A stretch of 64,000 nt of DNA from assembly GCF_029227855.1 (NCBI RefSeq), contig NZ_CP074357.1, one strand, 5' to 3'. This document shows, in pieces, positions 39,001 through 45,000 of the stretch; position 1 is the first letter of the stretch; each line of letters opens with the position of its first letter. The stretch is from Escherichia coli. Its GTDB lineage: Bacteria > Pseudomonadota > Gammaproteobacteria > Enterobacterales > Enterobacteriaceae. The position numbers are program-made.

Positions 39001-42000
39001 CGAATCGAAGCCATACTTCAGGCAGATATCGTAGACCCGCTGATCGGTGTCACGCAGATCGCGGGCGGCCAGCAGCAGCTTCCTTTCGCGAATATAGCGC
39101 CCCAGGCTCTCCCCTTTATACTGTAAAAACAGCCGTTGCAGATGCCATTTCGAATACCCGGCATGGCGAGCGATATCATCAATACGCAGCGGTTGATGCA
39201 GGTTGTCATCAATCCACTCGACGATAGTATCAATCACCTGAGCGGAAATCGTCATATGCTCTCTCCTCTGATACTGCACTGGCGCTTAGCGCCACCAGGC
39301 GTTAAATGATTGCGTCTTATCGGCGACCCACACCGGCTCGCCCTGCACAGGCGTCAGCAGACGCCAGGCCCTTCCTTCGCTGGCAGCCGCCAGCCGTTGA
39401 TACGGTTCATCCCAGCTGTGTTTCGCCAAAACGAATCGTCCTGCATGCCCAGGCAGCACCGCGCGAGCGCGCAGGTCGTCGGCGGCCTGAGCTGTTTCAT
39501 CCGGCATCATGTGAATATATTTCCAGTCCTGGTCATACTGCCCGTTCTCCATGATCGCCAGATCGACCGGACCAAATTCATCGCCTATCGCTTTAAAGTG
39601 CGGCCCATAGCCGCTGTCGCCGCTGTAATAAATCCCTAAATTCCACGTGTGTTTTTTATTAGCTTCAAAAATCACTATTTCACGAAGAATTTAGACTGCT
39701 TCTCACACATTGTAACATTATTTACAACCACCTTTCAATCATTTTTGATAAATCATTGATTTCATCTTTGCTGCAATGATACTTAATAAACTCTGCAAGT
39801 TATCCACAGAGCAGGAAAAGTTCGAAGCATTCTTCTTTCAGATGTTTCTAAACACTGGAAATTGAGAGATTTAGCTGATTATCTTTACATGAGCGAGAGC
39901 TTAATAAAGAAAAAGCTATTATTAGAAAACACTTCTTTCAGTAAAATATTACTTGATACTAGGATGTCGCTCGCCATTAAATTGTTAAAGCAAAATCATC
40001 CGATAAAATATGTGTCTGAAATGTGTGGGTTTAGTAGTACATCGTACTTTGTATGCCTTTTCAGACAATACTATGAGTGTACACCACGTAAATATCTAAA
40101 GCATTAGAGAACACCTGCCTTTACTTCCTTATTTTACCAATAATTTCAGCTAAGAGATTTTGATCTAAATGTTCGTTAATCGTTAAGCTTACTTCTGTAC
40201 ATGCCCTTATATAGATGTTCTGAACGGTGTTATTTCTGACAATGGACTTAAATGTCAGTAACGCCATTACACAGTTGGCCAACGCGAACAGCAGTATTGG
40301 TCGCAACAAAAAATGAAAGAAAAATCCCCCAAATGAAGGGAAAAAACGGAAGAACAGTCGAACGACAGGCACAAAAAAACCCGACTGGTAATCGGGCTTT
40401 TTCGTGTTTTCCAGTCCTGAGTTGGTGGCTCTGACTGGAGGAAGATACTCTACATCCAACATCCACAATATTATGGCACTAGACACCAGTTGTCTAGTTT
40501 GACTTCAGATTGTCTGTCAATGGCCATTTCTTTAAATGAATTTTATGCGTGCATCTGTATAATCTTTGCGTTGGCGCTGTACAGTGTGCCTCCCTTGCTT
40601 CTAAACCCTGCGCTATCTGGGTATGAACGAATTAAAGTCCTGGCTGAACAAACAGGTGGTGCTGTGTTCAGTGCTCTGGCAGGAGGAAGGTACTCTACAT
40701 CCAACAATGTGAGAGAGCCGTTGTGACAGGCGATGTATGAGCAAGCAACGGCGACTTCCTCCAGTATCAACCTGGAGAAACGGATGATTAACCTGTTAAT
40801 CATCGTTCTCAGGGCTGTGGTCGCCGTTGCAAACGCGCTGATTGCAGTTCTGGAACTGATCCGTCAGTTCATCGACTGATGACTGCGGAAACGTAACTAA
40901 GGGCAGGAAGTGCACCGCTTCCTGCCCTTTAACAAAGGAGGATTTATGGATTTTATGAGCATTTTGGGGCGCTGTTTACTTCTTCCTTTCCCTGTTGCGA
41001 TGTTTGTCGGTTGCCTGTTTCCAGGCATTGATGATCGTTTTACTGGAATGTTCATGAGTTTTATTGTCGGTTGTCTATCGTGGTATATCACCAAGCCAAA
41101 ACCGCAAAAGGCTGAGGTCGCGTAAGCGGCCTTTTTTACGTCTCTCGTTTAATTCCTCGCCATTCTGTCCAGAAATAGTATTGCGGCTAATCAAGCCAAT
41201 TCCTACGTCTTTTCGCTGTTGCACGATCTAAAAGAAAATATGGGAAAATTTCATGAAAGTATGGTACTAAAGGGTCTTTAATTCCTTTATCTTGTTCCTT
41301 CAACTGCACAGTATCTCGTAAAAACCAACAAGCCGGTTGTTTAAAAAACGCTCTTAGCGTAGGATGTTTTCCATTTTCCAAGTGGAACCCAAGTACGATG
41401 CCCGCGAAAAAGACAGCCCTCTTATGAAGAGGGCTGTTATCTGATATAGGCTTGTTATGGTCTCACTCTTGATTAATCAGGTGTATGTGCAACCTTGGTG
41501 CACACAATCGATTATGCAGCTTGATGATCTGAAGTGTTACCGGAAGTATCTTCGGTTCGTTTTTTGTTTGTGATGGATTCACTTTTATCTCGCAAGGCTG
41601 AGTCTATGACGTTAAACACCTTTTCCCACCGAGAAATCCAACCGCATATAGGTTGAACACGACATTTTTCCAGGAAGAAATTTAATAAGTTAGTTTTTTT
41701 ATTATCTTGCACTTTGAATGGTTCAATTACATCATCGGCATCAACAGATTTTCCTCCGATAAACCACGACGGATGGGTTTCCATTGCGTCAGAAATGAAA
41801 TCGTCAGGGAAGAGGCCTTCAATAGCAAAACCACTTCTTACAGAAATATAGTCTTTATTTGACTCAAATCTAATTTGTTTTTTACCAAAGTAGCTTTGTA
41901 ATCTGGTTCTTTCTTTGACCCCAGCTTCATCACCGTCAAAAACAGATATTACGGGGACATCTTTAGAAATAAACTCGTAGCACCCTTTCAAGAATCCCCC

Positions 42001-45000
42001 AAGTTGACTGACTCCACCAAACTCATCAACTTTAGCACTCCTCAGAAAAGGCCATCTGTTCTTAAACTCATCATCTTCAGATGTCAATTTCAATATTGAT
42101 TCTATATATTGTTTGTCGGTGATACCTTCAACGAAAACTGCACTACTTGATATGTTAAAGAAATCAGAAAATCTGACCCCAAGATTTTCTCTTATGCTTG
42201 CAACTGCATTAAATCTTTTTTCATGCTTTTTATCTTTTGTAACACCGGCGTCATCTTTATATAACTCAATGATCTTACTTGGCTCATCACTGACAAATGA
42301 TAAGGAATGAGTTGTAATAAGAACATAAGCAACATCCATCAGTGATTTGAAAATGTGATTACATGACCGGCCTAATGAGGGATGCAAGAAAGACTCAGGC
42401 TCCTCAACCATCCAAATCGTTTTCTTACCTAGAGTAAGTTTTCTCTCTGAAATAGATTTAAATGAAGAAAATAAAGATAAGCATTGTAGCCCCATACCTT
42501 TACTCGATATCACATTCTCAATAGTATCTTTTATTGAAACCTCAAAGCGACCAAATAACTCATCAAGAGATGGCGGAGCTTTAATAATAAAGCTACAGTC
42601 ATCTATACCGCTTAGAATCATTTCATTTGTTATCTTTTCAGATACTTCCAACAGTTTATCATGAATCACTTGAACCGATGTTTTCATGGCTGAAGCTACT
42701 TCACTCCTAACATATGGAACTAATAGATTATGATATATATCATCAATACTTTTTGACGATGGTATATACACACACTCAAAACTAGAAAGTATTTTTTCTA
42801 TGAACCTTCTTTCAACAGATGTATACATGGAGGAAGTTACTTCAGGTTTCCTCTTGTAACCTTTAAAGACAGTGTAAAAGTAATTGTTTTTATTAGATAT
42901 TGTCAGATGTACGGTCACTTCGTTTTGAGGTGACTTTAACCTGGAGTCATCAATCATGTTAAACAGCTGCAAATATCTATCTCTCAAACTTAGCTTTCTG
43001 CCTCTTGATTGAGTTGGTTTTGATTCTTGTTGTTTAGAGCTGCCATCATCAAATGAAATAGAATTACTAGGCTCTTCTTGCTCCCCTAAAACACCAAGTT
43101 CAATAATCGAGTCATCATCGTCATCATCATCGTCTTGGCTCAAATCCTCAGAGACATCATCTAGCTCACTTTCAGAAAAAGTAAATCTTACAGCAAAACT
43201 AGTTTGTCCTTGCTTAACACCATGTGGCTTATCTTTTTCATAGTCATATAAGTCAGGATTAAATTTTCCTTCAAAAAAAACCCTCATAGCTTTTAATAGG
43301 TTTGTTTTACCACTGTTGTTTTGCCCAACAATGGTTAATCCATTAAAGTTATCAGAGGATATCTCCCCTGAAATAGACCTATACTGAGAAACTTTAAATG
43401 ATACTATTTCCATTTTTCTTCCTACGATAGAATATTGCTCGGATTATCGACATTTTTTCCCAAGGCTTTAACTGTCTTTCGCTACTTGGATAAATGGCTC
43501 TTCCTCCACTGTTCTGCTTTATTTTCGCCAGAAAGCCCACCATGCATGTTGTTTGTCCTGAAGTGCTGCTTTATCCTGAAGCAATTCAGCACTCACTGCC
43601 CCCTGAAGCACAGAAACGGCGTTTCTCGCGGCATTGCGACAGGAATCAATAACCTCTGGTTCGTTGGGCTTTCTGAGCAGGATAAATTGCGATACTTTGG
43701 ACTGAGTATCAAAAGCATAGATTCGCAATTCAGGGGAGGATGTCAGGCTTACAATATTATGCAACCGCATATAATTGGTGTAGTCCTTGCTACTTGGATC
43801 ACATGATTCATAAAGATATTTCTGCATTAGCGTTTGCGATGAAGAAAGAAAATCTATATAGCGGTCAGTTTTTTTATCTATATCCCGCAGTCGCTGAGCT
43901 ATTGCATCTTTTCTTATTTCGTGGCAGTGTGTTAATTTCAGTGTAATCCAGCCACCAACAATGGTGATTAATGCACCCAGCCCAATTTTAACGGCATTAT
44001 CAGCCACATCTACCCACTCAGTTGCCATCTGTTACGTGTTCTTCCTGTGATGATCATGGTCGCTAGTATAATTCTCCGGCTGACTGGACATACAGCATTT
44101 TCTGTCCAAGATTAATAACCTCGAACTGCAACTACAATGCCGCAGATGATGCAAAGGGGGAGCCCGCAGAATTCGGAAAAAATCGTACGCTAAGGTTTTC
44201 CGGGCATCCGTAAGGGCCGAAACTTCCCGTCTTCCAGTCTGCGGCTCTGCCGCCAGACGTAATCGCCGGTTAGGTTGATGTGCTCCCAGCCCAGCGGCGA
44301 CAGGAATTGCAGCAGCTCGCCGTCCACCGGCTTGCCGGCCTCGACCAACCCCTGGGTGGCGCGTTCCAGGTACACCGTGTTCCACAGCACGATAGCCGCC
44401 GTCACCAGGTTGAGGCCGCTGGCCCGGTAGCGCTGCTGCTCGAAGCTCCGATCCCTGATTTCCCCAAGGCGGTTGAAGAACACCGCCCTGGCCAGCGAGT
44501 TGCGCGCCTCACCTTTGTTCAGGCCGGCATGCACGCGGCGGCGCAGTTCAACACTTTGCAGCCAGTCCAGGATGAACAGCGTGCGCTCGATCCGGCCCAG
44601 CTCGCGCAGGGCCACGGCCAGTCCGTTCTGGCGCGGGTAGCTGCCGAGCTTGCGCAGCATCAGCGAGGCGGTGACGGTGCCCTGCTTGATCGAGCTGGCC
44701 AGGCGCAGGATGTCGTCCCAGTGGGCACGCACGTGCTTGATGTTCAGGGTGCCGCCGATCAGCGGGCGCAACGTCGGGTAGGCTTGCACGCCCTGCGGCA
44801 CGTACAGCTTGGTTTCGCCGAGGTCGCGGATGCGCGGCGCGAAGCGGAAGCCTAGCAGGTGCATCAGGGCAAAGACGTGATCGGTGAAGCCGGCCGTGTC
44901 GGTGTAGTGCTCCTCGATCCGCAGGTCGGACTCGTGGTACAGCAGGCCGTCGAGCACATAGGTGGAATCGCGGACGCCGACATTCACCACGCGGGTGCTG

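Follow-up and report, generated by a model that had tools for sequence, protein, structure and literature searches.

Does the OLD-family ATPase-TOPRIM gene that abuts a Tn1721 end in an Escherichia coli sequence act on its own or together with the small membrane-protein gene that precedes it, and what is it likely to do for the DNA that carries it? The gene lies in a stretch of 64,000 nucleotides of contig NZ_CP074357.1 (assembly GCF_029227855.1), referred to here in its full length as the window, and encodes a protein of 633 amino acids (aa). Upstream of it, on the same strand and across a gap of 105 bp, lies the gene for a 169-aa protein, and 128 bp separate the start codon of the latter from the Tn1721 terminal inverted repeat at 44157. 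The original prediction, made from the sequence alone, described a solo OLD-family protein with a membrane-anchored partner, whose native promoter may have been displaced by the transposon end. Of that description, the stand-alone OLD type and the position of the repeat stand, while the partner and the displaced promoter do not. We consider it likely that the 633-aa gene is an intact and selectively maintained stand-alone OLD gene, most likely serving phage defence on IncX1 and IncHI2 plasmids, and that the 169-aa gene is an independent neighbour.

The 633-aa protein belongs to the OLD family

The 633-aa gene encodes a genuine OLD-family enzyme, with an ABC ATPase followed by a C-terminal TOPRIM domain. 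All of the motifs by which it had first been recognised were present in the translation, which contains Walker A GQNNSGKT (residues 29–36), Walker B IWMVEEPE (333–340) and TTHS (367–370) in the ATPase, and VFVEGITDKQY with E429 and VFDGDEAG with D493 and D495 in the TOPRIM domain, and the catalytic ones proved to be invariant in the family. A search of a large protein collection returned 292 homologues. In an alignment of 36 sequences from this clade, with identity down to 32%, the invariant columns of the ATPase domain were G30/N32/G35/K36, Q310, W334, EEPE 337–340 and H369, and those of the TOPRIM domain were E429/G430/D433, D493/D495/G498 and E532. Pfam placed AAA_15 over residues 1–374 and, when run on the whole protein, matched nothing in the C-terminal third. 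The best PADLOC model was Old (6.7e-19), and matches were also obtained with AriA (an AAA_15-like model, 6e-18), AbiLi (4.5e-13) and many of the GajA models (about 1e-14).

Comparisons that draw on family profiles and on structure gave the same answer. Searched against the PDB, the profile of the clade found the Class 1 OLD protein of Thermus scotoductus, TsOLD (6P74, 4.7e-18), GajA (about 5e-13) and the OLD protein of retron Eco8 (6e-8), in alignments that extend through the TOPRIM glutamate. By hhalign it was matched to P2 Old (98.7% probability, 2e-16) and to E. coli YbjD (95.7%, 8.8e-9), the latter alignment pairing the DGDEAG motifs of the two, DxD included. An AlphaFold model of the protein (predicted local distance difference test, pLDDT, 82.6) had full-length OLD proteins as its best Foldseek matches, with E-values of 1.2e-16 for GajA (8u7i_A), 2.7e-16 for Eco8 OLD and 4.9e-16 for TsOLD. 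Structure prediction, Foldseek, PDB profiles and hhalign all land on OLD proteins, as the earlier OLD/GajA assignment had it. The ATPase domain contains a helical insertion, as in Thermus OLD, and nuclease activity may be expected of the protein. Single-sequence phmmer searches of the PDB sequences with either the 633-aa or the 169-aa protein gave nothing useful, and a tblastn search with the OLD protein of 50,697 phage records returned just two weak Vibrio matches and did not recover P2 old.

The run DDDDDDDD, which had been taken for an unusual linker between the ATPase lobes, is present as residues 94–101 and can now be assigned to a longer insertion within the ATPase domain, acidic, disordered and about 65 residues in length. 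Residues 80–150 comprise 22 D/E, 7 K/R and 13 S in 71 positions, and pLDDT falls below 50 at residues 97–136. The insertion is confined to the Enterobacterales subclade, alignment columns 130–200 being filled in sequences P0002–P0018 and the window protein alone, and it varies in sequence while always remaining acidic. It is also the source of the 633-aa length, relatives being 550–560 aa and Class-1-like in size. As a matter of speculation, the insertion might mimic nucleic acid within the molecule or serve to bait a phage protein, and as an acidic, clade-specific feature it gives easy access to the question of how a stand-alone OLD protein stays inactive.

OLD proteins are grouped into Class 1, encoded by single genes, Class 2, encoded with GajB, Class 3, found in retrons, and Class 4, PARIS (PMC10568477; PMC12392090). 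The open reading frame (ORF) lists and RefSeq annotation of the window contained no UvrD-like helicase near the OLD gene, and a UvrD-, PcrA- or Rep-like helicase was likewise absent from five other OLD contexts. No reverse transcriptase ORF was found near the gene in the ORF list and RefSeq annotation, and an Rfam scan of 39500–45500 found no retron RNA, an AgrB antisense RNA being its sole match. Because no helicase, reverse transcriptase or retron RNA adjoins it, the 633-aa OLD is Class-1-like, which agrees with the first reading of the locus and with the lack of an adjacent UvrD-like helicase reported there.

Two other groupings were considered and rejected. In the IncX1 plasmid NC_021842.2, an 843-aa DEAD/DEAH helicase (11174–13705) is encoded 1.3 kb downstream of OLD; it has a full-length match to PADLOC PDC-S28 (1053 bits) and is a DinG-like protein of helicase superfamily 2, not a UvrD-like one. 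A Gabija-like pairing with this helicase was rejected, as PDC-S28 is a single-gene candidate, the convergent dqlB gene and a terminator lie in between, and neither the window nor other OLD contexts contain the helicase. With a PDC-S28 helicase near OLD, that part of the IncX1 backbone resembles a small defence island. A fused PARIS protein was rejected because there was no DUF4435 signal in the 633-aa protein or in any of 17 C-terminal domains of the clade.

The OLD gene is a one-gene cassette under purifying selection

A 5.8-kb mobilisable plasmid of Klebsiella pneumoniae carries mob genes, a RelE/NadS pair, rep and, as its only cargo, an OLD gene, and it lacks the 169-aa gene. The encoded protein is 95% identical to the window OLD by global alignment (94% by tblastn). 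DNA homology with this plasmid runs from window position 43509 to 41404, starting 10 bp past the stop codon of the 169-aa gene, and therefore covers a 95-bp leader, the OLD gene and a terminator hairpin. The distal 95 bp of the 105-bp spacer, in other words, travel with OLD; they contain AGGAAG 5 nt before the OLD ATG and a weak promoter-like sequence, TTAAAG-17-GATAAT, which was read by eye and has 8/12 matches, below the threshold of the scan. The OLD gene is a self-contained one-gene cassette in which leader with ribosome-binding site, gene and terminator move together, and on the small plasmid its own leader is evidently sufficient. Between the window and K. pneumoniae copies, the ratio of nonsynonymous to synonymous substitution rates (dN/dS) was 0.06 at a dS of 0.32, indicating that the gene is under purifying selection and is selectively maintained.

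These values bear on whether the gene might be an inactive passenger, a relic that rearrangements of IS26 and Tn1721 moved together with resistance genes. Its setting would suit a relic, as the DNA around the IncX1 fragment is a patchwork in which IS26, remnants of Tn1721 and resistance genes alternate, and near-identity across plasmids could mean recent spread rather than selection. The low dN/dS was measured over a dS of 0.32, however, and the ORF is intact, all catalytic residues, the leader and the terminator are kept, and insertion sequences in or beside the gene occur in single records only (ISKpn26 in H101; IS1 within the pair in H128), all of which makes a relic highly improbable.

More distant homologues were found in settings of other kinds. 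A 72% homologue lies in a lambdoid prophage of Edwardsiella piscicida, between N and a cI-type repressor gene (4056–7531), and is transcribed convergently with the latter. The N–cI interval is the position of rexAB in lambda, and the orientation of the Edwardsiella gene is opposite. A 62% homologue stands alone in a Serratia chromosome between lacI-type and lysR-type genes, and the Dickeya and Pseudomonas homologues have no neighbour in common. In Vibrio cholerae/metoecus, a homologue of 562 aa is a single chromosomal-integron cassette (3838–5735, GCA_037046355.1), bounded by VCR attC repeats (3838 and 5688), with neighbour cassettes that differ in four assemblies. OLD relatives occupy slots typical of accessory exclusion genes, such as the N–cI interval, an integron cassette and a small mobilisable plasmid.

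The same distribution has to be weighed for the explanation that OLD serves plasmid conflict or maintenance and not phage defence, for example by degrading competitor plasmids or as an addiction module. In Enterobacterales the gene is nearly always plasmid-borne (172 of the 181 places in E. coli), its neighbours are type I toxin loci (dqlB and AgrB RNA), resolvase and partition genes are near in IncX1, and in the small mobilisable plasmid it is the sole cargo. Keeping a plasmid is nevertheless of no relevance to the close relatives found in the immunity regions of prophages and in integron cassettes of chromosomes, the characterised stand-alone OLDs all show phage phenotypes, and no antitoxin-like partner is conserved. 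We therefore regard a role in plasmid conflict as unlikely and retain phage defence as the preferred function.

The upstream gene is not a conserved partner of OLD

If the 169-aa protein were a partner, the two genes would form a two-gene system in which it served as membrane sensor, anchor or regulator, and this would be a membrane-coupled OLD class distinct from Classes 1–4. Co-occurrence was examined in loci of the 169-aa family pooled from genome, viral and metagenome (DNA-pattern) scans and look-ups, the genome scan alone giving 7 loci. OLD was found downstream of members with at least 95% identity in 6/6 informative loci, and downstream of none of the more distant members (0/10 at 80–95%, 0/8 at 60–80% and 0/31 below 60%, together 0/49). 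Among the OLD-family loci of the pooled table, 15 of 23 were without a 169-aa gene, and the 8 carriers all belonged to the IncX1/IncHI2 lineage at 95% identity or above. OLD homologues at 95%, 72%, 62% and about 33–45% aa identity had no 169-aa gene alongside, so that distant homologues were without the membrane gene in every context examined, and the 95% copy, alone on its small plasmid, is the one that shows strong purifying selection. When full-length 169-aa family loci with at least 1.2 kb of downstream sequence were considered, 29 of 65 had no co-directional neighbour and the others were followed by unrelated genes. Relatives that share just the N-terminal part of the protein were without OLD in 17/18 informative loci, and the DNA homology breakpoints fall between the two genes. 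The upstream gene is thus not conserved with OLD homologues elsewhere, and the partnership that had been proposed is improbable. The same holds for its more specific form, in which a membrane protein with a helical bundle would detect events at the envelope or of injection, or would tether or restrain OLD, as a module that also pairs with other ATPase-TOPRIM effectors; this too we find doubtful.

Points that weigh against a stand-alone defence gene

Several observations count against our preferred reading of a stand-alone OLD defence gene with an independent neighbour. The two genes lie on the same strand, a terminator scan found no terminator-like site in the spacer between them, and at 95% identity or above they are always together; with this constant linkage and no terminator, co-expression or cooperation in this lineage is therefore possible. 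Read-through from the 169-aa gene into OLD is likewise possible, and the two genes may be co-transcribed. A distant recurrence of the arrangement was seen in a Verrucomicrobiales metagenome-assembled genome (JARGOD010000033.1, 9995–12049), in which a 190-aa N-terminal relative of the 169-aa protein is encoded directly before a 465-aa protein. The latter has an AAA_21 domain and a weak signal of DUF4435, and of the PADLOC models fused AriAB matched it best. No second distant recurrence of a membrane protein beside an ATPase-TOPRIM protein was seen. One locus in 18 is compatible with the clustering of genes in defence islands, and it keeps the idea of a partner alive at low probability.

The remaining points concern the enzyme itself. 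The TOPRIM domain is divergent: Pfam OLD-like_TOPRIM, run on isolated C-terminal domains, gave sub-threshold E-values of 0.017–0.1 in 5/17 members, and a profile of the C-terminal part alone had no significant match in the PDB, all of the proteins listed being TOPRIM proteins aligned at DxD. In YbjD, the phenotype needs the ATPase and not the TOPRIM domain (PMC13261556), so a nuclease-based mechanism is not guaranteed for the window OLD. A literature search found no paper on WP_065311127 or WP_065311128, or on an IncX1/IncHI2 OLD.

The 169-aa gene carries its own conserved leader

The native promoter of the pair was suspected to have been displaced by the Tn1721 end. The sequence up to 44156 is contiguous with that of IncX1 plasmids (98.7%), and the 80-bp leader of the gene is complete. 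This block is conserved in six unrelated contexts (IncHI2, IncX1, an mcc plasmid, IncFII, Buttiauxella and a Serratia P2 prophage) and includes a nested palindrome, GGACAG-AAAATG-CTGT-ATGTCC. Judged from these alignments, it is a probable promoter/operator that travels together with the 169-aa gene, and it is intact in the window. A consensus sigma-70 promoter scan found no strong site upstream of the 169-aa or the OLD gene, so conservation is the sole basis of the promoter assignments. A LexA box in the leader was considered and rejected, as the CTGT-N8-ACAG spacing is not kept in the Serratia and Buttiauxella copies (read by eye).

By homology breakpoints, which fall at 44104–44108 in five comparison loci (L019, L020, L036, L037 and L038), the 169-aa cassette measures about 600 bp, from 44108 to about 43508. 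The 169-aa gene is an independent cassette with its own 80-bp leader. At the same locus, an IncX1/X3 plasmid has a 46%-identical allele of the 169-aa gene, followed by a gene for an uncharacterised 273-aa protein and then by the downstream flank seen in the window; with alleles exchanged at the same flank, the IncX1 locus is therefore a variable accessory hotspot. The AgrB/dqlB flank was also seen behind the variable locus in IncX1, IncX3 and IncFIB plasmids.

The 169-aa protein and its relatives

Hydropathy analysis of the 169-aa protein found one hydrophobic segment at about residues 12–32, with a 19-residue Kyte-Doolittle peak of 1.77, in keeping with the single N-terminal transmembrane helix first described. 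An acidic N-terminus and a slightly basic stretch behind the helix give a weak hint of an N-out, C-in orientation with a cytoplasmic helical bundle. The AlphaFold2 model (pLDDT 84.6) is all-helical, a long transmembrane-plus-stalk helix being followed by three further helices. No Pfam, NCBIfam, PADLOC or PHROG family matched the protein, Pfam matched none of 25 members of its family, the Zn-carboxypeptidase PF00246 included, and its fold relatives are small uncharacterised proteins, some of them labelled DUF4760. The name 'peptidase M14', which has spread over dozens of Enterobacterales RefSeq entries, was rejected, since neither profiles nor fold support it.

An exhaustive profile search for the family yielded 261 cluster representatives, of which about 40 are full-length relatives. 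Many proteins of about 180 aa share just the N-terminal 50–60 residues, with the motif W-[VI]-[DE]-V-A-D-[SN]-A-V-K-I-G-L-G. The dN/dS of the 169-aa gene is 0.14–0.26, and tblastn with its product found no homologue in the 50,697 phage records. A homologue of 89% identity adjoins repA in E. coli IncFII plasmids, others of about 80% lie with HicAB and a DUF4145 protein in the gpA–gpQ hotspot of P2-like prophages from Serratia, and further ones are found in IncFIC, IncFIB and IncX1/X3 plasmids. The gpA–gpQ interval of P2 is an anti-phage hotspot, which in P2 itself holds old and tin (Rousset et al. 2022, PMC9122126).

Genes downstream of 169-aa homologues were of several kinds. In an E. coli IncFII plasmid (7162–9275, minus strand), a P-loop protein (GSRGSGKST) is encoded in two ORFs of 326 and 377 aa; this appears to be a different ATPase gene, unrelated to the OLD clade, that a frameshift has turned into a pseudogene. 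Elsewhere there is a 328-aa protein with a weak PADLOC PDC-S31 match and the 273-aa protein mentioned above, which recurs, and one 345-aa neighbour has a motif that by eye resembles Abi_2 (AbiD/F). This suggests that the 169-aa family tends to sit among defence-like cargo. It is conceivable, as a tentative proposal that we would put below even odds, that the family with its palindromic leader is itself a phage-exclusion determinant not described before, which would act as a single gene in P2 hotspots and on IncF and IncX plasmids. We find this more likely than a membrane-coupled OLD.

Locus layout and origin of the DNA

Both ORFs, the 105-bp gap and the position of the Tn1721 repeat were recovered as first reported, from the ORF list and from an exact match to the 38-bp repeat, GGGGAGCCCGCAGAATTCGGAAAAAATCGTACGCTAAG, for which the chance expectation is 0; the features are collected in Table 1. 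The repeat is followed by the 3′ remnant of a Tn3-family tnpA gene (ORF 44190–45596), which is cut by IS26 and followed in turn by aph(3′)-Ia. G+C content changes from about 0.66 in the transposase remnant to 0.33–0.43 over the OLD and 169-aa genes.

Table 1 Features of the OLD locus in the window
Feature	Position	Strand	Basis or remarks
633-aa stand-alone (Class-1-like) OLD-family ATPase-TOPRIM gene	41512..43413	−	RefSeq WP_065311127, named 'AAA family ATPase'
ABC-type ATPase domain, residues 1–~395	42229..43413	−	Invariant residues given in the text
Acidic disordered insertion in ATPase domain, residues ~80–150 (including D94–D101)	42964..43176	−	
TOPRIM nuclease domain, residues ~420–565	41719..42156	−	Invariant residues given in the text
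Intrinsic-terminator-like hairpin, 11-bp stem and T run	41413..41437	−	Terminator scan; ~75 bp past OLD stop
Spacer between 169-aa gene and OLD gene, 105 bp	43414..43518	−	Sequence
169-aa single-pass membrane protein gene	43519..44028	−	RefSeq WP_065311128, named 'peptidase M14'
Conserved upstream block of 169-aa cassette: palindrome GGACAGAAAATGCTGTATGTCC, invariant TATACT, AGGAAG	44029..44108	−	Six-context alignment
IncX1-type sequence, last 48 bp: truncated 3′ end of upstream 112-aa gene	44109..44156	−	Alignment and NC_021842.2 annotation
Tn1721 terminal inverted repeat, 38 bp	44157..44194	+	Exact match
IS26 transposase	45051..45773		IS26 inverted repeat at 45006
dqlB, DinQ-like type I toxin gene	~40784–40879	+	Convergent with OLD, just past OLD terminator
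AgrB antisense RNA	40372–40459	−	Rfam RF02891, 68.8 bits

Plasmid records that cover 80% or more of the interval 41200–44200 of the window number 172, the best being IncHI2 plasmids from E. coli, Salmonella and Enterobacter with 100% identity, and each of the two genes is found in about 173–175 plasmid records at 95% identity or above. The pair is present in 86 of 5,426 complete E. coli genomes, nearly always on a plasmid. It is also found at about 99% identity on IncX1 plasmids of 37–45 kb, for example pCFSAN002069_02 (NC_021842.2), which matches the window from 44157 to 41064 at 98.7%, unbroken up to the Tn1721 repeat. Because this match is continuous, the IncHI2 copy is a 3.1-kb fragment of IncX1-type sequence, and of the 112-aa gene found ahead of the pair in IncX1 plasmids, the Tn1721 end has left just the 3′ end.

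The Tn1721 repeat occurs in the window as three exact copies in the same orientation (17870–17907, 23358–23395 and 44157–44194), each followed by a tnpA 3′ remnant (ORFs 17903–19723, 23391–24980 and 44190–45596), and the remnants at 23391–24980 and 44190–45596 continue into IS26 copies. The three copies with their remnants point to repeated IS26-mediated reshuffling of one Tn1721 end. On the other side of the pair, a gene for a RamA-family efflux regulator (38914–39279, minus strand) is plasmid-borne between insertion sequences, near gene fragments that look chromosomal.

Proposed mode of action and implications

We infer an anti-phage role of the plasmid OLD, and its trigger, by analogy with the characterised stand-alone OLDs. 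P2 Old responds to RecBCD inhibition. In the resting state, the window OLD would idle in the cell, with ATP binding and hydrolysis by the ABC domain gating the two-metal site of the TOPRIM domain, as is envisaged by analogy with P2 Old, Vc OLD and YbjD. Upon infection or another trigger, the protein would nick or degrade nucleic acid, block phage replication and abort the infection, an outcome that would benefit the plasmid carrying the gene. As for the origin of the locus, the OLD and 169-aa cassettes probably became neighbours in the IncX1 accessory hotspot, and the 3.1-kb IncX1 piece now lies in an IncHI2 multiresistance region, bounded on one side by the Tn1721 end.

Stand-alone OLD nucleases are rare, one paper citing 0.45% of genomes (PMC12392090), and a defence role has been demonstrated experimentally for P2 Old, Vc OLD (PMC12392090) and YbjD (PMC13261556), the only stand-alone OLDs with known phenotypes, which differ in trigger and chemistry. 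The clade described here numbers at least 292 homologues and extends from integrons of Vibrio as far as Actinomycetota, and no characterised member was identified in it, the sequence of Vc OLD lying outside the comparison. Its interest rests on this scarcity and mechanistic diversity of stand-alone OLDs, on the clade being uncharacterised and on its carriers, which include epidemic IncHI2 (mcr-1-type among them) and IncX1 resistance plasmids of Salmonella and E. coli. If OLD protects against phages, antibiotic-resistance plasmids would be linked to phage resistance, a point of importance in phage therapy and plasmid ecology. The analysis also corrects the 'peptidase M14' annotation and flags the 169-aa protein as a candidate hotspot gene.

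Comparison with known systems

Among known systems, the gene for the 169-aa protein is most readily set beside the genes of the P2 gpA–gpQ hotspot, old and tin. It resembles them in being small, in having its own leader and in having homologues at the same site, and it differs from them in that its product is unlike Tin or Old and in that it is also common on IncF and IncX plasmids.

With GajA of Gabija (Class 2), the window OLD shares the two-domain architecture and its top Foldseek match, whereas GajB, the UvrD-like helicase of that system, is found neither beside the window OLD nor in its other contexts. PARIS AriA/AriB, fused AriAB (Class 4) and AbiL are alike in combining an AAA_15-type ATPase with a TOPRIM-like nuclease; PARIS differs in its DUF4435 signal (0/17 in the window clade), and the window profile is nearer to TsOLD and P2 Old than to AriA. 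The AriAB-like protein of Verrucomicrobiales, at 465 aa, is shorter than the window OLD and different from it.

A further likeness is to the Class 1 OLDs, P2 Old, TsOLD (6P74), Vc OLD and YbjD/OldB, which like the window OLD are encoded by single genes, have an ABC ATPase with a helical insertion and TOPRIM residues E, DxD and E, and sit in mobile-element slots of the exclusion-gene type; TsOLD is the best PDB sequence match of the window protein. Vc OLD, for its part, nicks DNA, blocks ICP1 replication and causes abortive infection, for which its Walker A/B and TOPRIM residues are needed (PMC12392090). The window OLD differs from the characterised members in its low identity to them, about 12–22% in fold and profile alignments, in being missed by the Pfam TOPRIM model, in carrying the acidic disordered insertion and in being plasmid-borne, on IncX1, IncHI2 and a small Mob plasmid.

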